Virus record (IMG/VR): IMGVR_UViG_2791355477_000007
Length of the DNA: 64,000 nucleotides
Source of the DNA: a virus
Taxonomy: Duplodnaviria > Heunggongvirae > Uroviricota > Caudoviricetes
Reading direction: 5' to 3' (one strand)
In this document: positions 1 through 16,897 of the stretch, one piece after another
How positions within the stretch are numbered: the first letter of the stretch is position 1
Layout of the letters: every line of letters starts with the position of its first letter
Program-made: the position numbers and the translations under genes
Notes under the pieces: generated by a model
Told to the model about the DNA's origin: nothing
Database searches by the model: none
What the model saw: the letters and a program-made list of their open reading frames with translations, nothing else

Positions 1-243
1 TTGTTTCAGTCTATTGTTGAGTTTTCTAAAGACATGTGTATTATTCTTGGTGGAACAATATCTACATCAGCAATGGTTGCATTAATTTTCGTTTTAGGAA
101 GTTTTATTGTACGAACAGTTTTGAACTTTCGATATGATAGGAAACAAAAAAGACAATTGAATATGATTCAAGCTACTCGTCCTTCAAATCTCATTAATTT
201 TAATGAGTATAAAAAAAGGAAAACGCTAAGGAAAATGGCGTAA
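1..243 (+). CDS. C-terminal part of a membrane protein (truncated by window start)
   Basis: ORF runs in from the left edge; hydrophobic helix (ILGGTISTSAMVALIFVLGSFIV) then basic tail; directly upstream of the SPFH gene. Confidence 0.3.
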   Translation: MFQSIVEFSKDMCIILGGTISTSAMVALIFVLGSFIVRTVLNFRYDRKQKRQLNMIQATRPSNLINFNEYKKRKTLRKMA

Positions 244-263: not shown

Positions 264-1244
264 ATGGGAATGATTATTACTGGCATTATTGGATTGATTG
301 TACTTGGTATTGTAATTTCTTCAATTAAAGTTGTTACAACTGGTCAAGTTTATATTGTAGAGAGGTTCGGTAAGTTCCATCGTCAATTAGAACCAGGGTG
401 GTATTTTATTATTCCATTTATTGATTTTGTTCGTGCAAAGGTTTCAACGAAACAACAAATTATTGATATTGAACCCCAGAAGGTTATTACTAAGGATAAT
501 GTATCAATACATATGGATAATGTGGTTTTCTTTAAAATTATGGATGCTAAAGCGGCCGTGTATAACATTGAGAATTATAGAGATGGAATCGTGTATTCCA
601 CCATTGCAAACGTTCGTAACATTGTAGGGGATATGGATTTAGATGATGTTTCTAAGAATCGTGATAAACTAAATGGCGATTTGCTAAATACAGTGGATAA
701 GATTACAGATAGTTATGGAGTTAAAATTTTATCTGTTGAAATTAACAACATCATTCCTCCTGCAAAAATTCAAGAGGCTATGGAACTTCAAATGCAAGCA
801 GAGCGCTTGCGAAGAGAAGGTATTTTAAAAGCTGAAGGAGAAAAAGAAGCTTCAATCTTGCGAGCTAAAGGTCATAAAGAAAGTCAAATCACAGAAGCAG
901 AGGGTAATAAATTAGCTCGTATTTTAAATGCAGAAGCAGAGAAAGAAGAGAGTATTCGTTTAGCAGAAGGTAAAAAAGAAGCGACTTTACTGAACGCAGA
1001 AGCACAGGCTAAATCAATCGAAATTGTTGCAGAAGCAGAAGCGAAAAAAATTGAAAAAATTAATACTGCTATTTCAAATACAGGAAATAGTGACACTGTA
1101 TTGAAATGGAAGCAAATTGAAGCAGTTAAAGAAATGGGATATGGTCCTGCAAACAAATTAATTGTTCCAACAGATATGATGAATAACTTAGGAACGATTG
1201 CTACAATTGCTGAAACTGTGCAGTTAACTAAAAAAGCAAGTTAG
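264..1244 (+). CDS. SPFH/band-7 (stomatin/flotillin-like) membrane protein
   Basis: N-terminal TM helix, then IVERFGKF...PGWYFIIPFID...Q.IDI core typical of SPFH domain; long Glu/Ala/Lys-rich EA-repeat coiled coil C-terminus; RBS GGAAGGAG upstream. Confidence 0.8.
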   Translation: MGMIITGIIGLIVLGIVISSIKVVTTGQVYIVERFGKFHRQLEPGWYFIIPFIDFVRAKVSTKQQIIDIEPQKVITKDNVSIHMDNVVFFKIMDAKAAVYNIENYRDGIVYSTIANVRNIVGDMDLDDVSKNRDKLNGDLLNTVDKITDSYGVKILSVEINNIIPPAKIQEAMELQMQAERLRREGILKAEGEKEASILRAKGHKESQITEAEGNKLARILNAEAEKEESIRLAEGKKEATLLNAEAQAKSIEIVAEAEAKKIEKINTAISNTGNSDTVLKWKQIEAVKEMGYGPANKLIVPTDMMNNLGTIATIAETVQLTKKAS

Positions 1245-2792: not shown

Positions 2793-3305
2793 ATGAAGGT
2801 GTATCATGTTTCTTTAGATAATAAGAAAACGAATGTATTTGCTCCAAGAGTTCCAAAGGACGAAATGCGATTGGCAGAAGAAGATAGTACCAGTGCCCGT
2901 TTTTGTGTCTCGACGACTATTGAAGGGTGTTTATCTGCGGTCCCTTGGGGTGGAGAATCATTAAGTTTACATGATAATAAAGTGATTACGGTTTATGAGT
3001 TTGATACAAATGATTTAGTGAATCAAGAGAATTTAATTGCTCCTTCGACACTATATCAAAAGGGTTTTGTTCCTGATGCGATGTATACGAGTGAACATTG
3101 GATTGTAAATGAATCTATACAGCCTAAAAATGTTTTTTGTATTGCAATAGATTCATATGAGGAAATAGTAGTTCCAGATGTTCCGTATGAAGATAGTTTG
3201 GTTTTAGAAACAGGTCTTGTAACGTTAGATGAGGTTTGGCAAGGAGATTTTGTCATGATTGAAAATATAAAATATCAACTATGTAAAGAAAAGAATGTAG
3301 CATAA
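2793..3305 (+). CDS. hypothetical protein (170 aa); paralog of N-terminal half of 12085..12819
   Basis: MKVYHVSLD..FAPRVP..CVSTTIEGCLSAVPWGG aligns with MSIFYHISMD..FVPRIP..CVSRTIDDCLSAIPSGG of the 12085 ORF; preceded by AGGTATTTT box. Confidence 0.5.
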   Translation: MKVYHVSLDNKKTNVFAPRVPKDEMRLAEEDSTSARFCVSTTIEGCLSAVPWGGESLSLHDNKVITVYEFDTNDLVNQENLIAPSTLYQKGFVPDAMYTSEHWIVNESIQPKNVFCIAIDSYEEIVVPDVPYEDSLVLETGLVTLDEVWQGDFVMIENIKYQLCKEKNVA

Positions 3306-3322
3306 TACATTCTTTTTTATTT
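3292..3322 (+). terminator. rho-independent terminator
   Basis: AGAATGTAgcataaTACATTCT hairpin + TTTTTT. Confidence 0.6.
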
Positions 3323-3351
3323 TGACTAAAGTCTAAAATATTTATATTTCA

Positions 3352-3381
3352 TTGACAATAGTAAATAAAATAATCTATAAT
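3352..3381 (+). promoter_or_regulatory. sigmaA-type promoter (TTGACA-18-TATAAT) upstream of pspA-like gene
   Basis: TTGACA at 3352, TATAAT at 3376, 18-bp spacer. Confidence 0.55.
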
Positions 3382-3425
3382 GTAACCATAGCAAGGAAAA
3401 ATACATATTTAGGAGTGTGATTGAA

Positions 3426-4142
3426 ATGGGTTTAGTAACTCGCTTTAAAAATGTTTGCAAGGGGTATTTCAATAAATGGCTTACAAAAGCAGAAGACCCT
3501 GAAGTGATGTTAGAGCAATTAATTGCAGAAAGCAAAACAAAGTATGAAAAAGTACAAATTGAAACTGCGAAAGCTATTTCCTCACGAGCAATGGTTTCAA
3601 AGGACTATGAAGCTCAATTGAAAAAATGTGAAGACTTAGTTGCAAAAGCGAAAGCATCTATTAAAGCAGGGAATGATAAACTTGCCACTGATTTCTTAGA
3701 GCAAAAGAAAGATGAAGAGGAAATTCTTCAAGAAATCAAATTGAGTTTAGAAACGGCCGAGAGACAAGAAGAGTCATTAAAAGATGAATTAAAACGTTTG
3801 ACAAAAGTAATGAAAAAAGCCGAAACGAAAAAACAATTACTTATTGCTAAGAATAACAGAGCACAAGCTCAAAAAACAGCTCAAGAGATTCGCCATGATT
3901 TAGATGGAGGAAACACTCTAACTGAAATTGGTAAAATCGAGAGAAAAATTGACGAGAAAGAATCTTTAATTTCTGCAAAAGAAGATGTTCACTCTATTAT
4001 TACAAAATCAGATGTAGAACGTGAATTTGAAGAAATTAAAGCAAATGAAGTAAGTGAAGAAATTCAAACTGAATTAGAAACTTTAAAAGCTCAAATGGCA
4101 AGTGAAGAGTCTAAAGAAGTTGCACTAACAAAAGAAGCATAA
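3426..4142 (+). CDS. pspA: PspA/IM30 family protein (phage-shock protein A / LiaH-like)
   Basis: MGLVTRFKNV...KAEDPEVMLEQLI..E matches PspA N-terminus MGIFSRF...KAEDP..; all-helical coiled coil ~240 aa; ATG 3426 preferred over GTG 3417 on RBS spacing (AGGAG at 3411). Confidence 0.8.
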   Translation: MGLVTRFKNVCKGYFNKWLTKAEDPEVMLEQLIAESKTKYEKVQIETAKAISSRAMVSKDYEAQLKKCEDLVAKAKASIKAGNDKLATDFLEQKKDEEEILQEIKLSLETAERQEESLKDELKRLTKVMKKAETKKQLLIAKNNRAQAQKTAQEIRHDLDGGNTLTEIGKIERKIDEKESLISAKEDVHSIITKSDVEREFEEIKANEVSEEIQTELETLKAQMASEESKEVALTKEA

Positions 4143-4159
4143 TTTAAAGAAAAACCTCT

Positions 4160-4195
4160 CTCTTATATAGTAGGAGGGAGGTTTTTTAAGGAGAG
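4160..4195 (+). terminator. terminator/attenuator after pspA
   Basis: CCTCTCTC..GGAGGGAGG hairpin (one G:U) followed by TTTTTT. Confidence 0.5.
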
Positions 4196-4201
4196 ATTTT
4201 A

Positions 4202-4585
4202 GTGCCAAATGAAAATATGATACTTGTAATTTTTTTCATTGGAATACCGATGTTTTCTCTATTGTTTTGCTTATTCCCGATTATAACGATAGTAGTAGCT
4301 TTGGGAATTTGTCTGCTATTTTCTATATGGTGTACGATTACAGATTCTTATATGGAAGTTAGTGATGTGAAAGAATCCATATCTAATAGATTAGACATAT
4401 CAACGGGCGAAATTCTCTTTGATTTAAACAAAAAGAACGCTACTTATTTGAGACCTGGAAACTATAGCGTGTTTACTTCAAAAGGAGAATTTATTCTGGA
4501 GTTAGGAATTGAGTATAACAACTTCTATTGGATTGAATTAAGCCAAGTATCGGATGTTAATTTCATAGATGAATTAAACATATGA
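4202..4585 (+). CDS. small membrane protein, paralog family member (type A)
   Basis: 2 N-terminal TM helices; C-terminal VFTSKGEF...ELSQVSDVNFIDEL motif shared across array; GTG start with AAGGAGAG RBS. Confidence 0.55.
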   Translation: MPNENMILVIFFIGIPMFSLLFCLFPIITIVVALGICLLFSIWCTITDSYMEVSDVKESISNRLDISTGEILFDLNKKNATYLRPGNYSVFTSKGEFILELGIEYNNFYWIELSQVSDVNFIDELNI

Positions 4586-4602
4586 GATAGGAGGGATAGG
4601 TA

Positions 4603-4983
4603 ATGGATGAAGAAGGAATTATAGGTTGTTTTGGTGTCTTAGCAATTTTAGGAGCATTATTCTACTGTTTCCCCATTATTATGGCTGTTATTACATTCAC
4701 GATTATAATAATTGGTGTTTGGACGGTTCACTCTGATTCTAAAGATAATAGAAAAAAGTTTCTTACTGATTTGCAATCTGAAATACCTCAGAAGCTTAGA
4801 ATTACAAAAGATGAAGTAATTTATGATTTCGGAGAAAAAGGTGAATCTTCATGGAAATACGAAGACTTTCGAATTTTTACTTCCAGAGGAGAATTCATTG
4901 TAAAGATTAAAGATGTAGATAAGAAAGATATTGAGTTAGAGCAAGTATCTGATGTTGATTTCATGAAGGAGTCGAAACAATAA
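4603..4983 (+). CDS. small membrane protein, paralog family (type A)
   Basis: TM N-term; FRIFTSRGEFIVKI...ELEQVSDVDFMKE. Confidence 0.6.
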   Translation: MDEEGIIGCFGVLAILGALFYCFPIIMAVITFTIIIIGVWTVHSDSKDNRKKFLTDLQSEIPQKLRITKDEVIYDFGEKGESSWKYEDFRIFTSRGEFIVKIKDVDKKDIELEQVSDVDFMKESKQ

Positions 4984-5357
4984 TGATAGCAGAAATTTTA
5001 ATGGTCTTTGGGCTCATAGTTGGGTTGATTATAGCTATTTCTCGTTTATCTCCTATAATTGGAATTATTTTCTTAATCATGCTATTGATTGGCATTGTCG
5101 TATTTAGTCATTACATACGAAAAGAAGAGCTTACAGAGTTAAAAGAAGTAATAGCTCATAACCTGTCAATTTCACAGAAAGAGATATTATTTGATGTTGA
5201 ACGAACGAGAAAATCTTTCTTAGGATGGAGAAAACTATATGTTTTTACATCAAAGGGAGAATTTGAAGTCAATATACATAGAGATAATGGTGAATGGGTA
5301 GGTATAGATTTGATTTCTATTTCAAATGTCGATTATATGAAAGAATTAAACTACTAA
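4983..5357 (+). CDS. small membrane protein, paralog family (type A)
   Basis: start overlaps previous stop (ATGA); YVFTSKGEFEV...ISNVDYMKEL. Confidence 0.6.
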   Translation: MIAEILMVFGLIVGLIIAISRLSPIIGIIFLIMLLIGIVVFSHYIRKEELTELKEVIAHNLSISQKEILFDVERTRKSFLGWRKLYVFTSKGEFEVNIHRDNGEWVGIDLISISNVDYMKELNY

Positions 5358-5478
5358 ACAAAATGAAGAGAGGTGTAAACATAATGGTTATGCGTTTTAT
5401 TGATGGATGTTTCAACAAAATATGTTTTTACATATTCTCTTCATTTTTATATGAATGAATTTTTAGAGAGGTGTCTAT

Positions 5479-5988
5479 ATGGATAAAAAGAATTATGAAA
5501 GTTTGTTCATGATGGGTCTGACAATTATGTCGATTATGGCTATAGTGGAAGAGAATTTTCAACGATATTTTATTATTTTATTGATATATATATGCTTCAT
5601 TACTATGATTCATTTCTTTCTTAATTATAAAAAATCTAAAACAAAAAATATGGTAGTCATTGAAGAATGCGTGAGAGAGAGTTTTACAAAATTAATAAAT
5701 GACTCCTATTATAAACTTTACGAAAATCAGCACCCTAAAGAAGTGGAAGAGAAATTCTTAGAGACAGTTAGAGCAATGAACATTATCATTCATCGAAACG
5801 GAGCATTGAATAAAAGCTCTTTCAAAGATAGATGCTTAAAAGGTTTTTACGAAGAAGACATCCGATTCTTTACAATGTTTGGAGAGTATACCTGTACTGT
5901 GAATGTATTAAAAGATGGATTAGGTGAACTGAAGAACCTCGACCAAATTTCTGATTTGGATTTTGATAAAGCGTTGAAAGGGATTTAA
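5479..5988 (+). CDS. small membrane protein, paralog family (divergent type B)
   Basis: TM N-term; ...CLKGFYEEDIRFFTMFGEYTCTVNV...ISDLDFDKAL. Confidence 0.5.
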   Translation: MDKKNYESLFMMGLTIMSIMAIVEENFQRYFIILLIYICFITMIHFFLNYKKSKTKNMVVIEECVRESFTKLINDSYYKLYENQHPKEVEEKFLETVRAMNIIIHRNGALNKSSFKDRCLKGFYEEDIRFFTMFGEYTCTVNVLKDGLGELKNLDQISDLDFDKALKGI

Positions 5989-6072
5989 AAATTGTAATAT
6001 TTATTTGTTTTTAGAATTTTTTAGAATTTATTCCTTAAAGTAGGAAGAAGGTTATGTAAAGGAGTTGAGGAT

Positions 6073-6531
6073 ATGTCTGATAACAATACTTCATCTATAC
6101 TATTCACGATGATAATTCCGCCTTTAGGGTTCATATTATTCTTGCTAAGACCTTCGTTGACAAAACTATATACAAACCATTTTACTGCATTTATTTTGGG
6201 GTTTATTGGTGTTGTCATGTGTATTATAGGAATCTCGCTTTATATTTACAAAATAGAATACAACCGTATTAAAAACAAAGATTTTGATAGAGTAAAAAAA
6301 ACTCTAACAAGGTACCTCAAAAAGAGTTTTGTATTAGTGGAAGAAGAAAAAGGATTAACAAAAAAGGATATCAATAAAAGATGTTTTACATCTTATCAAA
6401 CAAAATTCACTGTTTTTGTTCCCGATGGAGAACTCTTATGCACTGTAAACGTGAGTGAATATGACGTTGATGTTATGAAAGTAAAACGAGTATCAAAAAT
6501 GAATTTAAATAAAGAACTTTATGCGAGTTAA
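6073..6531 (+). CDS. small membrane protein, paralog family (type B)
   Basis: EYNRIKNKDFDRVKK..L.KRCF.SYQ..F.VFVPDGELLCTVNV signature. Confidence 0.6.
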   Translation: MSDNNTSSILFTMIIPPLGFILFLLRPSLTKLYTNHFTAFILGFIGVVMCIIGISLYIYKIEYNRIKNKDFDRVKKTLTRYLKKSFVLVEEEKGLTKKDINKRCFTSYQTKFTVFVPDGELLCTVNVSEYDVDVMKVKRVSKMNLNKELYAS

Positions 6532-6534
6532 TAT

Positions 6535-7032
6535 ATGCAGGAAATGGGTGAGAAGGCAATGTTTGATGCAGAGGTAGTAGAGAATCCATTTATTATTATA
6601 TTATTTATCGTGCTTGTTGGACTGTGTAAAGTCTTCTATGCCACAAATGCTTTCGCTTTCTATATTGTGATTACAGCTCTTCTTAGCATTATTTTAGGCA
6701 CGATATATTTTATTTACAAAAAAGAATACAACCGAATAAAACAAAGGGATATGGATAGAGTAAAAGCTACTTTGACGAGATTTCTCAGAACAAAGTATTC
6801 AACAATGTCCCAGATTAATAGTTTTTTTGTATTAATGGAAGAAGAGAAATATGTATCAAAAATAACTATTTTAAAAAGATGCTTTAAATCGTATCAACTA
6901 ACTTTAACAACGTTTATTCCAAGTGGAGAGCTTTTATGTTCTGTTACAGTGAGTGAAAACAAAGTTGATATTGATGAAGTAAGAGAAATTTCAATGTTAG
7001 ATTTAAAGAAAGAGCTGTATGTGAATAAGTAA
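6535..7032 (+). CDS. small membrane protein, paralog family (type B)
   Basis: EYNRIKQRDMDRVKA...KRCFKSYQL...PSGELLCSVTV. Confidence 0.6.
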   Translation: MQEMGEKAMFDAEVVENPFIIILFIVLVGLCKVFYATNAFAFYIVITALLSIILGTIYFIYKKEYNRIKQRDMDRVKATLTRFLRTKYSTMSQINSFFVLMEEEKYVSKITILKRCFKSYQLTLTTFIPSGELLCSVTVSENKVDIDEVREISMLDLKKELYVNK

Positions 7033-7058
7033 ATAGAGTATGTAAGGAAGTGATTTGG

Positions 7059-7553
7059 ATGTTTGATGATGAATCTAACGATTTATTAGTTTGTATAATG
7101 TTTGCACCAGTAGTTATTACGATTATAGCGTTTCTAATTATCTCTTTTGTACATATGTTTGTTAATTTCTATAATTCAAATATATTTTACTTTATAACAG
7201 GGGTTTCTGCTTTTGTTAGCTTAGTTGCAGGAAATGTGTATTGTCTTTACAAGAAAGAATATAACCGAATTAAAACAAATGATTTTAATCGAATAAAAGA
7301 AGAAATAAAAAAACATATTCGTAGTTGCTATGTAGAAAATACTTTTTGTTTAGTTGAAGAAAAAGAAGTTTCAAAAAGAGAAATTTTGAAAAGATGTTTT
7401 CGTACATACGAATTGTCGATTCATGTTTTTGCTCATCATGGAGAATTGGTTTATCAAACAAAGGTAAATAAAGATGAGGTATGGTTCAAAAACATAACGC
7501 AAGTTTCAAACGTGAATTTTGCAAAAGAATTTTATAAGAAATCAAAAATATAG
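7059..7553 (+). CDS. small membrane protein, paralog family (type B)
   Basis: EYNRIKTNDFNRIKE...KRCFRTYEL...HGELVYQTKV; ATG 7059 preferred (RBS AAGGAAG 7 nt upstream) over GTG 7050. Confidence 0.55.
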   Translation: MFDDESNDLLVCIMFAPVVITIIAFLIISFVHMFVNFYNSNIFYFITGVSAFVSLVAGNVYCLYKKEYNRIKTNDFNRIKEEIKKHIRSCYVENTFCLVEEKEVSKREILKRCFRTYELSIHVFAHHGELVYQTKVNKDEVWFKNITQVSNVNFAKEFYKKSKI

Positions 7554-7626
7554 GAATAGATACTTTATCAATTCCTATATAAATCCAAAAATATTTAAAG
7601 TTTAATAGTTTAAGGGAGGGCTTAAA

Positions 7627-8121
7627 ATGTGTGATAAGGAGTCGGAAGAACACTCTAATTCAAATTTATTCCTGTATGCACTTCTGCCTTTAATAGCGTT
7701 CTTGCTTCCATTTCTTAAGCCAGAGCTGAGTTCCGAGAACTTTATAAAATTCGTCAATACACTAATAGGTGTTCTTGTATTTGTGGTTGTATGTATCTCT
7801 ATAACCTTCTTGAGAAGAGAATATAACCGCATTAAAAGGAAAGATTTTGTTCGAATCAAGGAACAAGTTACACAGCATGTAAAAGAGCACTACTACTTAG
7901 GAATGCAAGACAGTTTTATTTTAATTGATAAGGAGAAAAATCTAACAAGAAAAGAAATCTTAAAAAGATGTTTTTCTACATATAAGGTAAAGATTCCTGT
8001 ATTTGCTCCAAGTGGAGAGTTTCTATATGAAGTGAAGGTTAATGAACAAGATGTAGAAATAATAAACTCTAAACGGGTATCACATGTTAGCTATGGTAGA
8101 GAGCTATATGTATATAAATAA
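7627..8121 (+). CDS. small membrane protein, paralog family (type B)
   Basis: EYNRIKRKDFVRIKE...KRCFSTYKV...PSGEFLYEVKV; RBS GGGAGGG. Confidence 0.6.
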   Translation: MCDKESEEHSNSNLFLYALLPLIAFLLPFLKPELSSENFIKFVNTLIGVLVFVVVCISITFLRREYNRIKRKDFVRIKEQVTQHVKEHYYLGMQDSFILIDKEKNLTRKEILKRCFSTYKVKIPVFAPSGEFLYEVKVNEQDVEIINSKRVSHVSYGRELYVYK

Positions 8122-8190
8122 ATGGGTATGTTAAAAATAAATATTTTTTTATATTAATAAAAAGATATGAAGAAGGAAGGAGATGTAGAA

Positions 8191-8688
8191 ATGTTTCATA
8201 AAGATGACCCAGAAGTAGTTTTAATGAAATATACAATTTTTTTGGGAATAGGATTAATCGTTTTCAACATCATAGTATGGGGTGTTTTATGGGTTACGAA
8301 TCTTGTTATGAATAATCTAACTGTAGTTATGTATGGAATTACAGGGATTGTTTTTATCGGAGTAGGTATTTCGATGTGTTTTATCAGGAAAGAATATGAC
8401 CGTATTACAAAATATGATTTTGACAGAGTTAAACGCTTATTAAGTCAGTATCTTAATGAAGAATATTTTAATGGCCAGAATAATAGTTTTATTTTAGTAG
8501 AAGAGGAAAAGGGAGTAACAAAGAAGGATTTTTTGAAGAGATGCTTTGCCACCTATCATATAGATTTAAAGGTGTTTGTTCCAGATGGAGAACTTTTATG
8601 TACTGTAAAGGTATATAAAGAAGGAATCCGAGTAAAAAATGTTAAGCGTCTTTCTCATATGAATTATAGAAAAGAATTTACGAAATAA
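8191..8688 (+). CDS. small membrane protein, paralog family (type B)
   Basis: EYDRITKYDFDRVKR...KRCFATYHI...PDGELLCTVKV; ATG 8191 has RBS GAAGGAAGGAG, upstream ATG 8167 lacks one. Confidence 0.55.
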   Translation: MFHKDDPEVVLMKYTIFLGIGLIVFNIIVWGVLWVTNLVMNNLTVVMYGITGIVFIGVGISMCFIRKEYDRITKYDFDRVKRLLSQYLNEEYFNGQNNSFILVEEEKGVTKKDFLKRCFATYHIDLKVFVPDGELLCTVKVYKEGIRVKNVKRLSHMNYRKEFTK

Positions 8689-8755
8689 ATACATATCCAA
8701 TAAATATTTTTGGGTTTATATAAGAATTGATAATAAATAAAAGGAGAGATTTTAA

Positions 8756-8938
8756 ATGTTTAAAGATGTAATTAAAAAAGTAGGTTCTATGCAAAATGTA
8801 ATTTCAGCTTCTTGTATCGGTGGTGGAGCAATTCTATTCAATTGGTTATTCCCTAAAATCACACTGTTTATCATTATCGGATTGTTAATTTTTAAGTATA
8901 ACGAACCAGTAAAAAAACGACTTTTTAAAGATAAATAA
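8756..8938 (+). CDS. small hydrophobic protein (60 aa)
   Basis: strong RBS AAAAGGAGAG; two predicted TM segments; inside paralog array. Confidence 0.4.
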   Translation: MFKDVIKKVGSMQNVISASCIGGGAILFNWLFPKITLFIIIGLLIFKYNEPVKKRLFKDK

Positions 8939-8952
8939 GAAAGGGAATTCAA

Positions 8953-9348
8953 ATGAAAACGAATAAAATTCAAATCGCAGTAGTAGTAGTTCCTTATTTT
9001 GTTTTATTAACAAAGTTTGTTATGAATCATAATATAGCAGGTTCTGTTATTTTGACCATATATGCTGTACTTATTTACAATTTCATCTCTTTATTTAAAT
9101 TAATTGATATGAAAGAGGTTAATTTTAAGAGAATTCATAGGAAATTAAAAAGTGTCATGAAGTTAAAAAATGATGATTGCATTGTAAAGTGTGACCAAAA
9201 GGTTCCTTTTATACATGTATTAATTGGAAAAGAACAATCTTACCTTTCAACATGCAATGTCTTAACCGCAAATGGGGAATTCACCATTTTAGTTGAGGTA
9301 ACACCAAAAGAAATTATTATTAAGCATAAAGAGTGTGTTCAGCAGTAG
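8953..9348 (+). CDS. small membrane protein, divergent member of paralog family
   Basis: TM N-term; C-term ...LTANGEFTILVEV... resembles GEF motif. Confidence 0.45.
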   Translation: MKTNKIQIAVVVVPYFVLLTKFVMNHNIAGSVILTIYAVLIYNFISLFKLIDMKEVNFKRIHRKLKSVMKLKNDDCIVKCDQKVPFIHVLIGKEQSYLSTCNVLTANGEFTILVEVTPKEIIIKHKECVQQ

Positions 9349-9367
9349 AAAAATGTGGAGGGGAATA

Positions 9368-9778
9368 ATGATGAATATAACATCTCATGTGGAAAATTCA
9401 AAATATGTCTTATTAGGAATATTGGGGGGTATCACATTTTTTGCGGTTGTTATTCGCCCTCTCTTTTATTTAGTCCCTGTATATATGAAGTATATAAAGA
9501 ATAGAAAAGTAGAGGCAGAGAAAAGAATTGTAACAGTTAAAGAATATGTTTCAAAATGCTTTGGGGTAGAACAAGAATCAATAGTCGTAGAATGTTTAGA
9601 AAATAAATCGACTTCTAAGTTAAAGGGATTTTATGAATATATGACAAAGAAAGCAGAATCATATCGTGTGTTTTGTGAGCATGGAGAATTTATTTTCAAA
9701 ATGGACATGTATGATGGTAATACAAAACTTACTGATGCCAAAATGGTATCTGATACAAATTTCAAAGATGCATTATAA
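9368..9778 (+). CDS. small membrane protein, divergent member of paralog family
   Basis: RBS GGAGGGG before ATGATG; YRVFCEHGEFIFKM...MVSDTNFKDAL. Confidence 0.5.
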   Translation: MMNITSHVENSKYVLLGILGGITFFAVVIRPLFYLVPVYMKYIKNRKVEAEKRIVTVKEYVSKCFGVEQESIVVECLENKSTSKLKGFYEYMTKKAESYRVFCEHGEFIFKMDMYDGNTKLTDAKMVSDTNFKDAL

Positions 9779-9816
9779 AGAGTGTCTGATTAATGGAAAT
9801 GTGAGGTGTAAATAAC

Positions 9817-10194
9817 ATGTATAGAAAAGAATTTATTTGTAGTGTAATAGGTTTTTTGTTTGCTATAATTGGCTCTATTTTGAACATGAATATCTTTTCT
9901 GGTGGTGTTCTTTTTATTTCATTATTAGGGGTTATATATATTTATAAAAAAAAGCTAAAAGGAGAGTCCATCATAGCTGATAGAGTAGTGAAAGCTCGTA
10001 TTTATGAAAAGTTTTATTCTCCTATATATGCTCCTGAAGGAAAAACAGTCCTATTCGAAAAATCGTTAGAAAATACATATCGAATTTTTACAAAAAAAGG
10101 GGAGTATGTACTCACTATACATTCTTCGGCACAAGGAATTGGCTATGAGTATAAGAAAGTATCAGATGTAGATTATTTCAAAGAAATTTCGTGA
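9817..10194 (+). CDS. small membrane protein, paralog family (type A)
   Basis: YRIFTKKGEYVLTI...KKVSDVDYFKEIS. Confidence 0.6.
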   Translation: MYRKEFICSVIGFLFAIIGSILNMNIFSGGVLFISLLGVIYIYKKKLKGESIIADRVVKARIYEKFYSPIYAPEGKTVLFEKSLENTYRIFTKKGEYVLTIHSSAQGIGYEYKKVSDVDYFKEIS

Positions 10195-10226
10195 TGGAAG
10201 CAAAATAATAAAGGGGTGAAAAAAGG

Positions 10227-10613
10227 ATGAGCAAGGCTAAGTATCTATTGGTAGGTTTAATTTTTGTTTTTGGAATATATATATACCCATACGTTGATGA
10301 GCTTGGTGTTTTAATCGGTGTTGCAGTTTTTGTATATTTTATTTTGTATGATTTAAAAACATTTATTGAAAAGATAGATGATAAGAACAAAGATATCGGA
10401 TTGAGGGAATCACTTCATATAGTCTTTTCTGCTCCTAAATATGCTCCTGAAGGAAAAAAGGTCATTATTGAATTTGTTAAAAAAGATGAGTATCGAGTTT
10501 ATACAAAAAAAGGAGATTACTCCATTGTTATTGAGCGAGGGGAAGAAGATGCAATACTGAATATGAAAAAGGAAAAATTATCAGACGTAGATTTCTTCAA
10601 AGAAGTATTTTGA
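10227..10613 (+). CDS. small membrane protein, paralog family (type A)
   Basis: PKYAPEGKKVII...YRVYTKKGDYSIVI...KLSDVDFFKEVF. Confidence 0.6.
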   Translation: MSKAKYLLVGLIFVFGIYIYPYVDELGVLIGVAVFVYFILYDLKTFIEKIDDKNKDIGLRESLHIVFSAPKYAPEGKKVIIEFVKKDEYRVYTKKGDYSIVIERGEEDAILNMKKEKLSDVDFFKEVF

Positions 10614-10634
10614 TTTTATTAAGAAAACTATGTT

Positions 10635-11027
10635 ATGAAGGGACTGATAAAGGTGAAGTATCTACTATTAGGAATTTTTATCTTTTCAATTTATAGATTT
10701 CCATCTTTCGATAATTTCAATATCTTAATTGGCTCATTTTTGTTTGTTGTTTTTATTGTATATGATGTTGTCAATATGAAGTTAAAAAGAGAAGAACTAA
10801 ATGAGGATGAGCGATTAAGAAAGATGATTTATAGAAATTTTCCTGCTCCTGAGTTTGCACCAGAAGGGAAACAGGTAATTATTGACCGTTTAACATCAGA
10901 TGAGTACCAAGTATATACAACAAAAGGAGCCTATTCTTTTATTGCTGTGAGAGGACCATTTGATTTAATTGTTGATATAAAGGAAGAAAAGCTGTCAGAC
11001 ATAGATTTTTCCAAAGTAATAGCTTGA
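10635..11027 (+). CDS. small membrane protein, paralog family (type A)
   Basis: PEFAPEGKQVII...YQVYTTKGAYSF...KLSDIDFSKVIA. Confidence 0.6.
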   Translation: MKGLIKVKYLLLGIFIFSIYRFPSFDNFNILIGSFLFVVFIVYDVVNMKLKREELNEDERLRKMIYRNFPAPEFAPEGKQVIIDRLTSDEYQVYTTKGAYSFIAVRGPFDLIVDIKEEKLSDIDFSKVIA

Positions 11028-11031
11028 ATTG

Positions 11032-11150
11032 TGTAAAGAAAAGAATGTAGCATCATGCATTCTTTTTTTATTTTGACTATAATTTATTTTATTTTTATTT
11101 CATTGACAATAGTAAATGAAATATTTATAATGATAACCATATCAATGGTC
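11032..11150 (+). repeat. direct repeat DR2 (partner of 3282..3390)
   Basis: see DR1; includes hairpin+T-run and TTGACA-17-TATAAT. Confidence 0.7.
11103..11131 (+). promoter_or_regulatory. sigmaA-type promoter inside DR2
   Basis: TTGACA 11103, TATAAT 11126, 17-bp spacer. Confidence 0.5.
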
Positions 11151-11185
11151 AAATATAAATGGATTGACAAGGAAGTGAGATATAG

Positions 11186-11389
11186 ATGAATGTGCATATC
11201 GAATATTTCATTAAGTGTTTGACAGAAATTTTAGAAAAAGATTTAAAAGAACATGCAGTAGATGTTCCAAATATGATTCAACAGTCTATTTTTTATGAAT
11301 TGATAAAAGAAGAGCCTTTATTTGCAACGCATTATCCACCCGAATATTGGTCTGATGAAATTTATAAAGAGCAAATTGAAAGGAAGTAG
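11186..11389 (+). CDS. hypothetical small cytoplasmic protein (67 aa)
   Basis: ORF with RBS GGAAGTGAG; no TM; no recognisable motif. Confidence 0.4.
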   Translation: MNVHIEYFIKCLTEILEKDLKEHAVDVPNMIQQSIFYELIKEEPLFATHYPPEYWSDEIYKEQIERK

Positions 11390-11393
11390 CGAT

Positions 11394-11840
11394 ATGGATA
11401 GATATAATGTATTGAGATTTTGCATTCCTATTATGGGCGGGCTTATGTTTCCACTTGTGGTGTTTTTTGATAATCCAATAATATCTTTGGGAATTATCAT
11501 GGGTATTCTATTAATTAGTTTTGCGTTCCATTTGGTTTTGAAAATCCATAAAATCAAGTACGAAGATTTGGAAAGAGCTGAAAAGTGTATTTGTTATGAG
11601 CTTGGTTTCCTTATGCTTGATAAAGAAGGATTCTCTATATCAGTGATAAATAGAGAAACTAAACTTAATGTAATCACTTTACTAAAGAGATGTTTTTTCA
11701 GTTCCTGTGAAAACTACAGTGTTTACACATCTATGGGAGAAGTGAAGGTAAGTGTTATGATTTACGATGAGATTGCTTTTATTGATGAAATGGATTTTAT
11801 ATCAAATGTTAATTATGAAGAACTTTTAAACGTAAGTTAG
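11394..11840 (+). CDS. small membrane protein, paralog family (type B, divergent)
   Basis: ATG 11394 with RBS AAGGAAG; ...LLKRCFFSSCENYSVYTSMGEVKVSV...ISNVNYEELL. Confidence 0.5.
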   Translation: MDRYNVLRFCIPIMGGLMFPLVVFFDNPIISLGIIMGILLISFAFHLVLKIHKIKYEDLERAEKCICYELGFLMLDKEGFSISVINRETKLNVITLLKRCFFSSCENYSVYTSMGEVKVSVMIYDEIAFIDEMDFISNVNYEELLNVS

Positions 11841-12084
11841 GAAGATAACTTTAGACTTCTTGTTATTACAAAAACGTTCGCATTATTATGAACAGCAATT
11901 TGTTATGTGAAAAACTTGTATGTTATTTTAAAATATTTTCTACATGGTTTATCCTATTTATTTTTTACAGAAAAACTATATGTTGTATACGAAATATAAT
12001 AAAAAAACGCTCCTGGCATAAAATACTATGTTATTACAAATCAGGTATTTTATGAATTTATTTAAAAAGGGGAGCGTTTTTATT

Positions 12085-12819
12085 ATGTCTATTTTTTATC
12101 ACATTTCAATGGATTTACAGCATTCAGGAGAGTTTGTACCAAGAATTCCATCTTGTCGTCATCAAGACAAAGAGGACGATGTGACAAACCGCATATGTGT
12201 GAGTAGAACGATTGATGATTGTCTTTCAGCTATACCAAGCGGAGGGGCACATTTAGAGGAGTTAAACATTGAACAAAGAGGATATTATAAAGTATTTAAA
12301 ATTGATACAGAAAAATTAGGTATCGAGGATTCAGATATTGTTTCATCGGATGTTTTATATCAAGAAGATTTAGTAAGAGATGCTGAAGTGACAAATGAGC
12401 ATTGGATTTTAAAAGGATTTCAGGTAGCTAAAGAGGATTCTTATATAATAAAGCTGATTGCTTGGGAAGAGTCTTCTAAAGATATTGTGCCAGAATTTAT
12501 TTATCGAATGGCAGAAGAACAGTATGGAGGAGATTATGTTAAGGCATACACTGACCATTTCAACGGCTATATGCCTTGCTCTACGTTTATAGTCGATGCA
12601 GGTTATGTAAAGGAATTTGTAAATGCAGGGATGACTTTGAGTTTTTATTTTGATACAGAGGAAGAGAAGGAGTATTTACTGTCTAAGTTTCAATTAGATA
12701 AAAGAATACATATCTCATATCAAGACATGGATACGATATCTATTTGCATAAAAGAAGATATGTCATGTGAAGAGTTATTTACTCAACACCTTCAATTCTT
12801 AAAGAATAATTTATTATAG
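12085..12819 (+). CDS. hypothetical protein; N-terminal half paralogous to 2793..3305
   Basis: internal ATG 12085 preferred (RBS GGGGAG, AGGTATTTT box 35 nt upstream); alignment with 170-aa protein. Confidence 0.5.
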   Translation: MSIFYHISMDLQHSGEFVPRIPSCRHQDKEDDVTNRICVSRTIDDCLSAIPSGGAHLEELNIEQRGYYKVFKIDTEKLGIEDSDIVSSDVLYQEDLVRDAEVTNEHWILKGFQVAKEDSYIIKLIAWEESSKDIVPEFIYRMAEEQYGGDYVKAYTDHFNGYMPCSTFIVDAGYVKEFVNAGMTLSFYFDTEEEKEYLLSKFQLDKRIHISYQDMDTISICIKEDMSCEELFTQHLQFLKNNLL

Positions 12820-12821
12820 GA

Positions 12822-13217
12822 GTGTTAGAAATGAAACTGCAAAAACCACTTAAAACAGTTAAAGTATGTATTCTATTATTAACTTGTTCATCTTTTTTGT
12901 TCGGTTGTGAGCATACAGTTAGAACAGAAGAAAATGTGATAGGACAAGTAGTAGATAGACAAATAGAAAAAGTGAAAATTGAAGGCGACTGCACTCAGAT
13001 TCCGATTGGGGATACTGGTGTTTTTATGCCAATTTGTGATGATGATAAAGAAGAAGAGCATTTTAATGTAACAGTTCAAGCCCATGGAATTACTACAATT
13101 CTTAATGATAAATCAATGTTTGAGAGCAAAGAGAAAGAACTTCCTGTTATTTATATAAAAGAAGTAGGGGAAGAATCAAACAAAGTCTATGATGAGCGGT
13201 TAATATTACCTTATTAA
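12822..13217 (+). CDS. putative lipoprotein
   Basis: signal peptide with lipobox LFGC (…CSSFLFGCEH); start abuts previous stop. Confidence 0.55.
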   Translation: MLEMKLQKPLKTVKVCILLLTCSSFLFGCEHTVRTEENVIGQVVDRQIEKVKIEGDCTQIPIGDTGVFMPICDDDKEEEHFNVTVQAHGITTILNDKSMFESKEKELPVIYIKEVGEESNKVYDERLILPY

Positions 13218-13392
13218 TGAAGAGAGCGAGTGTAAACTTGCTCTCTTTTATTTTGTTATTACAAATAAATACTCTGTTAAAAGATAAGTAATGTATATAT
13301 ATAAATTATAAGAAGATGAATTGTACTTTTGAACAGTTCAAAGAGCAGTGGATTAAATACTCACTGCTCTTTGAATATTTAATTGATATGAC

Positions 13393-14763
13393 TTATACCT
13401 GAATTGGTACATCAATTTTAGCTCTTGCTACGCAAACCCCTTGTTTAACTATATAACATTCAACAAAGTGTTCACCGTTAAAAGATGTACATTCTTTAAG
13501 TGTTTCTGAATTGGTTTTAATAATTTGTCCTCTTACACAGTTTCTTTCTTTCGCTACATCCCCACGGTTTTTAACTTTCCAATACACATGATATGGTTTT
13601 GTAACGTAATTGTCTTTTATATAAAAATCCAATTGTTTGCTGATTGGTAAATGCAGACCTCTTTCTAACCAATCATTTAAAAAATAAGGTCGAAAACCAT
13701 CCTGTGTAATGCGACAGTCTAAAGATAAGTGGTACTGAATATTTACAGGGAACATATATTCAATAAATTCCTCAGACTCGTTGTATAGTCTACTCTCTGT
13801 AGAAGCATAAGATTTGCTTACAGCCGAATTTGTTTCTTTTTCTTGTTCTAATTGTTTTTCCCAATATTCATGATTAAAGAACTCTTGCCATGCTTTAATT
13901 GCTTGTTCGGGTGTACAACCTTCCTCAAACAAAACTTCCAACTTTCCTAAATAAGTTGTTAATCTTCTTTCTAATCTGTCCAACCGAACATCATCTTTTT
14001 GAATTAATTTAAGGCTTTGCTCTTCATCAGTGGGGTTATTTACCTCTTTATCTATGGTCAATCTATCTCTTACTGCAACTAATGTATGATAAAACATTTC
14101 ATCTATGCGTGTTTCAGCTTGAAAACATTCGTTGAGAAGTACGGATTGAACTAAACCACCAGGCATTTCCCATTTAGGTCTGGATTTACAAAACATTTTC
14201 AACAGTCTTGCTACAATACGAAGGTTATAATTCTTCTTTTTATTTTCATTATTAAACCACTTGGTAATACTTCTTGGGTCTCTTGGCCGCCATTCGCTTC
14301 CGCAATGTTCGTATTTATATTCACCATATTCGTCTTTATATCTTCGATAAATAGCAAAATCAATGTGATAGCCCTCTTCATAAACAATTCGTACACAGTT
14401 TGTTTTTGCTGTAGGTGGTTCTTTAAATTGTTTACATTTCTTTTTCAGTGCGGTTACTACCATATTCTTTGTTGCGGTTGTTCCTTCAGGTAAGTTGTCC
14501 TTATCAAAAATGATAGCAACATCAATATCGTAATCTTTACTTTCATTTTGCACAACTGTAGACATAGCTACGCTTCCCTGAACAACGGTATCTACAATTG
14601 AATAATTTGTTTTCTTTTCCTCGTTGTATTCTTTTAATCCATCTTTTAATCTATCAAGATTCGATGTTCTAAGCTTAAATAATCGATTTTTTTCTTTACC
14701 TTGTAACACAACATGTTTTTTGTAAAACGTCATAAGCTTGTTATTTAAGTCGTACATAAGCAT
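13393..14763 (-). CDS. CBASS cGAS/DncV-like nucleotidyltransferase (CD-NTase)
   Basis: pol-beta NTase signature QGSVAMSTVVQNESKDYDIDVAII (GS...DxD) and downstream HIDFAIY third acidic residue; 456 aa; co-oriented and 6 nt from a multi-TM effector-like gene. Confidence 0.7.
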   Translation of the reverse strand: MLMYDLNNKLMTFYKKHVVLQGKEKNRLFKLRTSNLDRLKDGLKEYNEEKKTNYSIVDTVVQGSVAMSTVVQNESKDYDIDVAIIFDKDNLPEGTTATKNMVVTALKKKCKQFKEPPTAKTNCVRIVYEEGYHIDFAIYRRYKDEYGEYKYEHCGSEWRPRDPRSITKWFNNENKKKNYNLRIVARLLKMFCKSRPKWEMPGGLVQSVLLNECFQAETRIDEMFYHTLVAVRDRLTIDKEVNNPTDEEQSLKLIQKDDVRLDRLERRLTTYLGKLEVLFEEGCTPEQAIKAWQEFFNHEYWEKQLEQEKETNSAVSKSYASTESRLYNESEEFIEYMFPVNIQYHLSLDCRITQDGFRPYFLNDWLERGLHLPISKQLDFYIKDNYVTKPYHVYWKVKNRGDVAKERNCVRGQIIKTNSETLKECTSFNGEHFVECYIVKQGVCVARAKIDVPIQV

Positions 14764-14769
14764 CCTCCA

Positions 14770-15861
14770 TTAAGCTTGAATGTATTTACCTTTCTCGTCA
14801 CCGTTAAGAACAATGCCCCAAGGATATTTTTTTGGGGTATGCATATCAAAGAAGTAGCAGATAACTTGTGCCATTCTATAATTTTCAATTCTTTTTCCTA
14901 TTTCTAATGCTAAACAACTTTGACTGGAACAAACCAAATGAACTTTTGTTGCTCCAATTTCTTCAATCGTATCCATGATAGTTTTTACATAATCTTTAAG
15001 TTGATTTGTATAGCGTATTTTATTATCATCTGGTGTATCTACTGCCAGTTTCACAACATCTACGCCTTCAAACTGAGTTAATTGAGCATCCTTAATTTCT
15101 TTTGTGACAGAAATAGATAATACCACTTCTATTGCATTTGGATTTAAATGATTCAAATCTGTTTTAACCTCTAAAGCAGAGTATCCATTACCTTCTTTTA
15201 ACTCGTAGAATTTTTCAGTTTCTATTTTGTCGAACTCGAAATAATGGTCTATTTTTTCTCTTTGTAAATACGTTCCTGCTAATGCTACAAACGGGATAGG
15301 AGCGATACCTGTGTAACCTCTTTTAAACTCTTTACTTTCATCTTTAAAGGAAGTTATTTTTTCTTTCAGCATATTAGCGATATCTTTTGTAGTAGTAGGA
15401 TTTATACCTTTTTTATAGGTTTGAATGAAATCAATTTCTCTTTCTTTGAATTCAAATGTTCCTAAACCTAAATCACGATTATGTCCTTCAATTCTTTTAT
15501 CAAAATAACCGTTGATGTTTAAAATGAATATTCTATTTTTAATATATCTCCAGAAGTAAATTCCTGCTACGAATAATAGTGCACCGACAATAAGTTGAAG
15601 AACATTAGGTTCGGACATTTCTTTTGTAATAGCGATGGATTCTTTCGCTGTTTCGCTATTTTTTAAGATTGATAGGGTTTGGAGTGGTTTGTCCCAGGGA
15701 GAACCAAAAGCACTGACAACTAAAGAAAGACCCGTTGTAATTAACAAGGAGGATAAGCTTTGTTCTTTATTTTGGCTTGAAAACTGTTTGATTACAAACA
15801 AACCTCCAATACCAATAATAGCAATAACTAAAATGATAATAAAAATAGCCAATATTTTCAC
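14770..15861 (-). CDS. CBASS effector candidate: 3-TM N-terminus + ~250-aa C-terminal sensor-like domain (TM-SAVED-like?)
   Basis: three N-terminal hydrophobic helices then soluble domain; operonic with CD-NTase; SAVED assignment is inference from architecture only. Confidence 0.5.
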   Translation of the reverse strand: MKILAIFIIILVIAIIGIGGLFVIKQFSSQNKEQSLSSLLITTGLSLVVSAFGSPWDKPLQTLSILKNSETAKESIAITKEMSEPNVLQLIVGALLFVAGIYFWRYIKNRIFILNINGYFDKRIEGHNRDLGLGTFEFKEREIDFIQTYKKGINPTTTKDIANMLKEKITSFKDESKEFKRGYTGIAPIPFVALAGTYLQREKIDHYFEFDKIETEKFYELKEGNGYSALEVKTDLNHLNPNAIEVVLSISVTKEIKDAQLTQFEGVDVVKLAVDTPDDNKIRYTNQLKDYVKTIMDTIEEIGATKVHLVCSSQSCLALEIGKRIENYRMAQVICYFFDMHTPKKYPWGIVLNGDEKGKYIQA

Positions 15862-16126: not shown

Positions 16127-16897
16127 ATGAATTTAGATGGAATGAAAGAATTAATTAAACAAAGTGCAATGAAAAGAAAACAAATGTTTACAGAATTGAA
16201 GGAACCTTGGGAAGTTGTTACGTTGTATTACGGAACAACAAGTAAAAAATTGAATGATATTTTACAACATGGAATTACTCCTCAAAATGGTGTACCTTCA
16301 CATCCTGAGTTGGTTTATTTAACAACAAAATGGCATTATTGGTACGCTTTCCAGGAAAATAAAAAATCATTAATTGCAACTGTAGGAAAAGAACGATATG
16401 AATCAGAGTCTATTACTTCTCTTTGGAATGAAACAGGTGACTTTCCAATTTATATTTCTTTAGAAGTGCCAAAAGAAATATTGGTATTAGATGAAAATGT
16501 GGTTCATCAATTAGATATTAAAGAGAAAATTCAAAATGGCGATATTGAAAGCCCAGATGATATTTCGTTAGAGGATTGTTTAGAACATGGCATGGTAGCT
16601 TCGATTGATACGATTAAACCTTGGTATATAGATGAGGTTAACATTATTGGTAGTGAAGAATATAGGGATGATTTGTTAGATGGAGCATATGGAGAAGAAG
16701 CGAATCTTTGGTTTAAAGGATTTGGGATTGGCTCAATAACTGCTGATTCATTAAATTTATATGAGCAAGTAGCTTATGGTAATTTAGTGAAAGTTGTGGT
16801 GTTTTCTCCAATTATTGAAGATAATCCTAAAATAAAAAGTATTTATATTAAAGACGAGAAATTACAAATTGACTTTGATTGGAATTGGTTTAAGTGA
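16127..16897 (+). CDS. hypothetical protein with Tpt1/KptA-like HGT NAD-binding motif (ART-fold candidate); paralog of 17071..17850
   Basis: LYYGTTSKKLNDILQHGITPQNG...ELVYLTT resembles KptA [29 protein letters not shown]; ~60% identical to next gene. Confidence 0.4.
   Translation: MNLDGMKELIKQSAMKRKQMFTELKEPWEVVTLYYGTTSKKLNDILQHGITPQNGVPSHPELVYLTTKWHYWYAFQENKKSLIATVGKERYESESITSLWNETGDFPIYISLEVPKEILVLDENVVHQLDIKEKIQNGDIESPDDISLEDCLEHGMVASIDTIKPWYIDEVNIIGSEEYRDDLLDGAYGEEANLWFKGFGIGSITADSLNLYEQVAYGNLVKVVVFSPIIEDNPKIKSIYIKDEKLQIDFDWNWFK

Follow-up and report, generated by a model that had tools for sequence, protein, structure and literature searches.

PspA/IM30/Vipp1 proteins are bacterial ESCRT-III proteins, whose targeting to membrane sites is unclear outside the PspBC, LiaI and YdjGH-YdjI systems. 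LiaI is a small membrane protein (~125 aa) with two transmembrane (TM) helices, encoded next to a PspA-family gene, and it anchors LiaH. Such anchoring has precedents in LiaI-LiaH and in YdjG/YdjH-YdjI-PspA (PMC8581546; PMC11237479; bioRxiv 10.64898/2026.02.06.704340). In Bacillus subtilis the pspA-ydjGHI locus has a terminator after pspA, ahead of ydjG, that holds PspA at a higher level than its anchors (PMC8581546), and YdjG is by description a TM segment joined to an NTF2-like domain (PMC11237479). Here we describe a plasmid locus in which a divergent PspA gene is followed by an array of 15 diverged genes for small two-TM proteins. The locus lies at positions 3426-11840 of IMG/VR record IMGVR_UViG_2791355477_000007, a stretch of 64,000 nucleotides that we call the window. 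Literature searches by locus tag, accession and concept term found no description of the array, and in a broad survey of PspA gene contexts neither tandem arrays of partners nor the B. cereus group nor plasmids are mentioned.

The original prediction, made from the letters of the sequence, had proposed a large array of highly diverged paralogs downstream of a PspA gene, and a family profile hidden Markov model (HMM) bears this out. It finds exactly 15 members in the 64-kb window (E 1e-18 to 3e-53), all on the plus strand between 4202 and 11840 and none elsewhere. With RefSeq start codons the proteins measure 124-169 aa, slightly below the upper limit of 173 aa first given. Each gene is indeed preceded by its own GGAG-type ribosome-binding site, although members do not fill the array entirely, since two small open reading frames (ORFs) within it are not members. 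The copies are far from identical: identity ranges from 9 to 58% overall, with 9-32% to member 1 and 34-58% among the type B proteins, so that a recent near-identical duplication is excluded, as had been argued. One glycine is invariant in the alignment and a serine is present in at least 90% of members. The shared C-terminal motif is real and forms the best-conserved block, VFT..GE followed by VS.V.F.KE. Two main types, A and B, can be distinguished, whose profiles align with each other only over the final 39 columns (E 1.2e-4; probability 55% in hhalign). Members 4, 11 and 15 show mixed features and bridge the two.

Type A opens the array with member 1 (4202-4585, 127 aa, HMM E 7.6e-31), member 2 (4603-4983, 126 aa, E 6.6e-26) and member 3 (4983-5357, 124 aa, E 8.2e-27), whose start overlaps the member 2 stop. 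Member 4 (5479-5988, 169 aa, E 4.4e-33) is of intermediate type with an insertion, and is followed by five type B genes: member 5 (6073-6531, 152 aa, E 1.3e-45), member 6 (6559-7032, 157 aa from the RefSeq start, the longest ORF beginning at 6535; E 3.3e-48), member 7 (7059-7553, 164 aa, E 3e-53), member 8 (7627-8121, 164 aa, E 3.6e-44) and member 9 (8191-8688, 165 aa, E 2.5e-44), which has the most hypervariable TM hairpin. Member 10 (8953-9348, 131 aa, E 1.4e-37) is divergent, and in the alignment lacks the C-terminal VS.V.F.KE tail. The intermediate member 11 (9368-9778, 136 aa, E 6.4e-28) precedes three genes of type A', namely member 12 (9817-10194, 125 aa, E 2.7e-23), member 13 (10227-10613, 128 aa, E 3.3e-20) and member 14 (10653-11027, 124 aa, longest ORF from 10635; E 1.2e-18). 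The B-like member 15 (11394-11840, 148 aa, E 8.5e-33) stands apart behind a second promoter, P2.

The two non-members are both small and on the plus strand. The gene at 8756-8938 encodes a 60-aa TM protein that gave no match in a Pfam scan, PspB and PspC included, while that at 11186-11389 encodes a 67-aa soluble protein with no TM segment, the first gene of the second transcription unit. The 60-aa gene is found at the same position within the array, with 85-100% identity, in all seven haplotypes examined (see below), and its product may be a core component of the module. The 67-aa protein is 63-94% identical where found and is missing from L011 and L012.

The predicted N-terminal TM helices were also recovered: every member has a hydrophobic core of 38-58 residues, which by hydropathy fits two TM helices, followed by a soluble domain of 75-120 aa. 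In an AlphaFold2 (AF2) model of member 1 (predicted local distance difference test score, pLDDT, 77), helices spanning residues 4-22 and 26-47 are joined by a three-residue turn, and after the hairpin one helix precedes an antiparallel sheet of three strands, with a further short helix at the C-terminus. A separate model of the member 9 soluble domain was confident, with pLDDT 87 and a predicted template modelling score (pTM) of 0.75. Lysine and arginine residues cluster in the 20 residues past TM2 (2-8 per member, at least four in 13 of 15), with 0-2 in the inter-helix turn. By the positive-inside rule, this distribution suggests that both termini and the soluble domain are cytoplasmic, leaving a predicted external turn of 0-10 residues. 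A role as receptor decoys, one of the functions first put forward, is judged unlikely on this predicted, charge-based topology, in which the folded domain is cytoplasmic and the external turn very short.

That the domain fits no named family was likewise confirmed. Pfam returned only sub-threshold TM noise for all 15 members, and NCBIfam, PADLOC and PHROG nothing beyond such noise for five representatives. The PADLOC-DB scan covered those five (types A, intermediate, B and A') together with PspA and the two flanking 170-aa and 244-aa proteins, and gave no significant match for any of them. A profile search of Protein Data Bank (PDB) sequences with the family found no match below E 0.06, and a BFVD fold search found none. 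The members have no match to Pfam or NCBIfam families of the LiaI/LiaF TM type (at E<=0.1), to the Pfam zinc-ribbon, PepSY/YpeB and TPM families, or to those of PspB and PspC. In the models the soluble domain is a helix on a three-stranded sheet, with a possible resemblance to cystatin, NTF2 and VirB8-like proteins at the level of fold only. The proteins are thus a new, unclassified family of small inner-membrane proteins, restricted, as shown below, to one lineage.

The gene immediately upstream of the array (3426-4142, plus strand) is a divergent plasmid-borne PspA/IM30 (ESCRT-III-like) gene. It scores 102.3 bits against PF04012, where the gathering score is 33.9, and the match is near full length, with residues 7-226 aligned to profile positions 3-217 of 220. 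Its end lies 59 nt from the start of member 1, in agreement with the ~60 bp originally noted. By contrast, it scores far below the cut-offs of both NCBIfam equivalogs (44.7 against 380 bits for LiaH; 70.7 against 243 for TIGR02977) and is therefore a divergent paralog. RefSeq labels the gene 'PspA/IM30 family protein' and the 17 genes that follow 'hypothetical protein'.

Positions 3400-11900 of the window are 100% identical to the minus strand of the B. thuringiensis Bt407 502-kb megaplasmid BTB_502p (NC_018878.1). Searches with both DNA and protein found no second matching plasmid in PLSDB, and no match to this region among the phages. A word-indexed search of 5.8 billion proteins recovered 32 clusters of the array family; every cluster with a named source belongs to the B. 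cereus group, mostly on contigs of ~490-505 kb. An exhaustive profile search of 1.84 billion representatives gave 22 matches, 20 of them real and mostly orthologs of individual paralogs. Only one match could not be traced to a Bacillus assembly; it is a metagenome contig of soil type, 1 kb long (24% GC), and carries two type A members, again adjacent. A profile search of genome contigs with the type B alignment found no relative. Relatives of the plasmid PspA form five clusters at E<=1e-10, every one on array-bearing contigs, and the 170-aa protein encoded upstream of pspA has only three clusters in the 5.8 billion proteins by the less sensitive word-indexed search. Since the PspA paralog and the 170-aa protein are as restricted as the array family, the whole module is a lineage-specific invention.

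Across the seven haplotypes (that of Bt407, which is the window, and six others) the gene order NfeD, 80-aa gene, SPFH, (DUF262), 170-aa gene, PspA, array is invariant. The co-occurrence of pspA with its flanking genes, which it had been suggested to tabulate, therefore holds in 7/7 cases for the 170-aa gene and breaks down for the 244-aa gene downstream, of which L007 retains only a fragment and L012 nothing. Copy number is less stable than gene order. Bt407 and L011 have 15 members, L010 has 15 with one split in two, L009 has 14, L002 and L012 have 12 each, and L007 has 11 intact members plus member 1 in two pieces. L002 lacks the DNA of window positions 5489-7494, members 4-7 being replaced, and has an apparent chimeric member-6/member-7 gene at L002:9992-10495; this chimera, read from the pattern of blastn high-scoring segment pairs only, suggests unequal recombination between paralogs. 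In L012 the second unit (67-aa gene, member 15 and 244-aa gene) is missing except for its lipoprotein-like gene. Together, these differences suggest that copy number shifts through recombination between paralogs.

The members also change faster than their neighbours. Relative to L002, flanking genes encode proteins 92-98% identical and members proteins 59-92% identical. The ratio of nonsynonymous to synonymous substitution rates (dN/dS, NG86) is 0.15-0.68 for members, against 0.08-0.16 for SPFH, DUF262, PspA and the 170-aa gene. Gene-wide it stays below 1 for every member, which indicates that the genes are functional and at the same time means that the diversifying selection originally proposed is not demonstrated. 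The rapid evolution that this proposal implied is evident from the dN/dS values and from a copy number of 12-15; positive selection is not. Exchange of alleles is suggested by a raised dS in several members and by a mosaic pattern of divergence over the locus.

The change is concentrated in the membrane segment. When each member was split at the end of its hydrophobic core, pooled dN/dS for the TM hairpin and the soluble domain was 0.51 and 0.25 against L002, 0.46 and 0.21 against L009, and 0.43 and 0.26 against L007; in the hairpin, pooled dN against L002 reached 0.25, compared with 0.07 in the soluble domain. Member 9 is the extreme case: across haplotypes its soluble domain is 80-83% identical, its hairpin only 25-41% (dN/dS 0.8-1.4). 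A frameshift as the source of this hypervariable TM part was ruled out, the codon alignment being in frame throughout. Fast change is not general to the TM segments of the locus, since the 60-aa TM protein is nearly invariant (dN/dS 0.04 and 0.11 in two comparisons).

Transcription signals divide the array into two units. The duplicated terminator and promoter module of the original prediction is real, with ~84% identity between its copies at 3277-3394 and 11027-11145 (repeat families D5 and D8), although it does not bracket the array, because the second copy lies inside it. Copy 1 comprises a terminator, made up of a hairpin at 3287-3318 (dG -13 kcal/mol, z -5.8) and a U run behind it, and promoter P1 (TTGACA-18-TATAAT, 3352-3381) before pspA; copy 2 has a hairpin at 11036-11069 (dG -13.9 kcal/mol, z -3.4) and promoter P2 (TTGACA-17-TATAAT, 11103-11131). 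All four are on the plus strand, and both promoters match the sigma-70 consensus at 12/12 positions. Fourteen members thus follow pspA in an operon layout with short intergenic gaps and individual ribosome-binding sites, and member 15 belongs to a second unit, which comprises the 67-aa gene, member 15, the 244-aa gene and the lipoprotein-like gene and ends at a plus-strand intrinsic terminator (13-bp stem and T run, 13219-13248). Directly 3' of pspA, on the same strand, an 18-bp hairpin with U6 (4149-4187, dG -23 kcal/mol, z -4.6) is a putative leaky intrinsic terminator or attenuator. It is almost invariant in six haplotypes, one of which has a PspA of only 68% identity; no compensatory changes were seen, so that its support is conservation rather than covariation. 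A second possible attenuator, again on the plus strand, is the long hairpin and U run between members 3 and 4 (5360-5447, dG -27 kcal/mol, z -3.2).

We tentatively favour, as the best supported of several possible readings, the view that the array encodes diversified membrane partners of the dedicated plasmid PspA. Several observations argue for it: the adjacency to pspA, invariant in all haplotypes, together with the co-restriction of array, PspA paralog and 170-aa gene; the linkage to SPFH-NfeD; the placing of the predicted cytoplasmic domain on PspA's side of the membrane; an operon layout that mirrors pspA-ydjGHI; and the pairing of a conserved soluble domain with a variable hairpin, as would fit a docking module shared by all members and fused to a membrane module that has diversified. 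Under this reading, limited read-through of the hairpin 3' of pspA would give array expression below that of PspA, and it may be, by analogy, that the B. subtilis logic of a terminator keeping PspA above its anchors applies here. The conserved cytoplasmic domain would contact a common partner, PspA and/or the adjoining SPFH-NfeD complex, while the variable hairpins would supply differing specificities within the membrane. The hairpins might in this way direct PspA, or its regulation, to particular membrane lesions or to foreign proteins lodged in the membrane, in parallel with the anchoring of PspA homologs by LiaI or YdjG/YdjH in B. subtilis. What weighs against it is that, in every sequence-membership test applied, the members fall outside the LiaI and YdjG/YdjH families. 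An expanded set of PspA membrane partners had been listed as one alternative at the outset; it now fits the evidence best, although by sequence the members are not homologs of LiaI.

The surroundings look like a defence and accessory island. Beyond the 5' edge of the window lie a CBASS (antiphage signalling system based on cyclic oligonucleotides) operon with SAVED and CD-NTase genes, a WGR-PARP gene and NfeD. The window itself begins with a gene for an 80-aa small TM protein between NfeD and SPFH (1-243, plus strand; ORF list and RefSeq), kept in all syntenic loci at 72-96% identity, followed by a gene for an SPFH/Band-7 (flotillin/stomatin-like) membrane protein (264-1244, plus strand; PF01145, E 2.3e-40), which is syntenic with the PspA-array block in 7/7 haplotypes. 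A DUF262/GmrSD_N gene, a defence-type neighbour, lies on the minus strand (1465-2556; PF03235, E 9e-17). The soluble genes flanking the array, on the plus strand at 2793-3305 (170 aa) and 12085-12819 (244 aa), are paralogs as claimed (32% identity, E 9e-24). They share an N-terminal domain of ~110 aa with matches to two phage protein families of unknown function, phrog_5043 and phrog_10766, and to a single phage contig from the human gut; apart from these phage-type matches, the two paralogs are confined to the megaplasmid lineage. Member 15 and the 244-aa gene are separated by 244 nt, in which there is a long structured stretch (11960-12085, dG -29 kcal/mol, z -4.3). Scans of the window against Rfam and for tRNAs gave no match. 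The last gene before the terminator (12831-13217, plus strand) encodes a 128-aa protein with a lipobox-like N-terminus (LFGC, read from the sequence) and no match in a Pfam scan.

After the array, the order is 244-aa paralog, lipoprotein-like gene, second CBASS operon and SpoIISA toxin. The downstream CBASS operon (13393-15861, minus strand) encodes a CD-NTase and a Saf_2TM-SAVED effector, and the upstream one (L001:3699-6120) a CD-NTase and a SAVED effector. The two bracket the NfeD-SPFH-PspA-array block, the downstream operon being missing in L007, and no Cap2 or Cap3 gene is annotated or called beside either in the regions examined. Further along the window, tandem paralogs of 256 and 259 aa (16127-16897 and 17071-17850, 63% identity) may be ADP-ribosyltransferase-like, the 259-aa protein having sub-threshold Tpt1/PARP-like Pfam matches. 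Another tandem pair, of 164 and 165 aa (62% identity), lies on the minus strand at 32530-33024 and 33143-33640, and tandem duplication seems common on the megaplasmid. RefSeq annotates a SpoIISA-family toxin at 18944-19726, as well as a 434-aa WXG100-family type VII secretion system (T7SS) target at 40579-41883 (minus strand) with an adjoining 'bacteriocin immunity protein'; these are other conflict systems of the plasmid, without a link to the array.

Other haplotypes carry a further set of small tandem genes between WGR-PARP and NfeD (L009:4615-5857 and L007:2378-3621). Their proteins (124-131 aa, 28-53% identical to each other) have a two-TM hairpin and a cytoplasmic tail. Two to three small genes are called at the same position in L010-L012, none is called there in L002 or L003, and they are absent from Bt407. 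We considered these genes as a third subtype of the array, and rejected this because, despite the similar architecture, homology is unsupported (hhalign probability 1.5%).

The alternative that survives best, although we regard it as unlikely, is a tandem expansion independent of PspA, in which the members serve, for example, as clients or spacers of SPFH-NfeD microdomains or in some membrane function of the plasmid or its niche, and diverge under relaxed constraint. The two tandem pairs elsewhere in the window (16127/17071 at 63% and 32530/33143 at 62%) and the unrelated three-gene two-TM set upstream of NfeD in other haplotypes are in keeping with such an expansion, as are the pseudogenised copies; dN/dS values that are elevated yet below 1 are compatible with relaxed purifying selection. 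Nonetheless, reading frames, ribosome-binding sites and the cytoplasmic domain are kept intact across haplotypes whose PspA differs by up to 32%, and the invariant position behind pspA and the co-restriction of the PspA paralog with the array also speak against this reading.

Next in order, and also unlikely, comes the idea, raised in the original prediction, that these are orphan or stockpiled immunity proteins. Each hairpin would then neutralise a different membrane-acting toxin inside the bilayer, such as a pore-forming bacteriocin or a T7SS/LXG toxin, with PspA providing general membrane protection. The claim has not fared well, as no partner toxin gene or cassette occurs in or beside the array in any of the seven haplotypes and no immunity-family HMM of Pfam or NCBIfam gives a match. 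Moreover, the predicted location of the domain is the cytoplasm, the short external turn could not reach a toxin arriving outside the membrane, and the distribution of the family follows a single plasmid lineage, not that of any toxin family.

More specific, and for that matter doubtful, is an extension of the partner reading in which the locus would be a PspA/ESCRT-III-based system of membrane surveillance or defence. A recombining library of hypervariable hairpins would serve as bait within the bilayer for foreign proteins that insert there, for instance phage holins, injection or tape-measure proteins, bacteriocins and 2TM effectors. The shared domain would recruit or release PspA, which, acting with SPFH-NfeD, would close the lesion or isolate it. 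Such a locus would be the counterpart, in the membrane, of arrays of diversified immune receptors. One can conceive of a defence link because a type II CBASS cyclase from B. cereus is conjugated to PspA when expressed in B. subtilis, the PspA partner holding the cyclase inactive (PMC11153139). This link is weakened by the flanking CBASS operons, which show no Cap2 or Cap3 in the regions examined.

The same conjugation (PMC11153139) could be cited for a further alternative, which we consider improbable: that the members themselves attack the membrane as effectors (holin-like or 2TM pore formers), or sense infection for some anti-phage or abortive-infection system not yet recognised, and are restrained or buffered by PspA and possibly by SPFH-NfeD. 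The setting would suit this role, with CBASS operons on both sides and DUF262/GmrSD_N, WGR-PARP and SpoIISA genes nearby in a defence island. In addition, two TM helices with a basic juxtamembrane segment resemble class II holins and 2TM effectors. Against it, the PADLOC scan gave no match, no holin family in Pfam or PHROG matches the members and the locus has no lysin gene, the operon encodes no enzyme or nucleotide-sensing domain, the CBASS operons show no Cap2/Cap3 in the regions examined and the downstream one is not retained in L007, and it would be hazardous to keep 15 toxic effectors behind a consensus promoter. Finally, the idea that the ORFs are not real genes, or are a recent duplication or assembly artefact, has nothing in its favour beyond absent database annotation and can be dismissed on the 9-58% identities, the ribosome-binding sites, the RefSeq annotation and orthologs in independent assemblies with dN/dS below 1.

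The gene family and its PspA context are genuine, have clear limits and had not been described before. With a divergent PspA of its own, 12-15 diversified partners and a clear split between a conserved cytosolic module and a hypervariable one in the membrane, the locus would provide a compact natural system for the question of how PspA is targeted, and the position between CBASS operons offers a way to test whether PspA systems join phage defence. Should the link to PspA prove incidental, the array would still represent a new protein family with unusual evolution, its reach being one megaplasmid lineage. Interest is tempered by that restriction.

Set against known systems, the locus is distinct from several that it superficially recalls. 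Unlike the immunity-gene arrays of polymorphic-toxin, bacteriocin and T7SS loci, it has no adjoining toxin, and its link to pspA is obligate. In VirB8-like proteins, which are encoded within type IV secretion system (T4SS) operons, a single TM helix is joined to an extracytoplasmic domain. The array members, by contrast with VirB8-like, TcpC and PrgL NTF2-like proteins, have two TM helices and a predicted cytoplasmic domain; none matches the VirB8 Pfam family, and there are no T4SS genes in the neighbourhood. Like LiaI, the members are small two-TM proteins encoded beside a PspA homolog. Unlike LiaI-LiaH, however, the plasmid locus has pspA first in order, its members carry a folded cytoplasmic alpha+beta domain, and no LiaFSR genes are adjacent.

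A close parallel is with pspA-ydjGHI (samGHI). Both loci combine a PspA homolog with integral membrane partners and have a link to an SPFH protein, and in both a terminator-like hairpin stands directly after pspA and before the partner genes. The NTF2-like domain of YdjG also recalls the cystatin/NTF2-like fold matches of the members, although this is a generic likeness of fold, and the members, unlike YdjG and YdjH, have no zinc ribbon, YpeB-like, TPM or other common Pfam domain. The plasmid SPFH protein has its own TM segment and belongs to a separate upstream operon with NfeD, rather than lying downstream of pspA, and the locus as a whole, unlike pspA-ydjGHI, is plasmid-borne and lineage-restricted. 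Where pspA-ydjGHI encodes two distinct partners, the plasmid locus encodes 12-15 paralogous ones.

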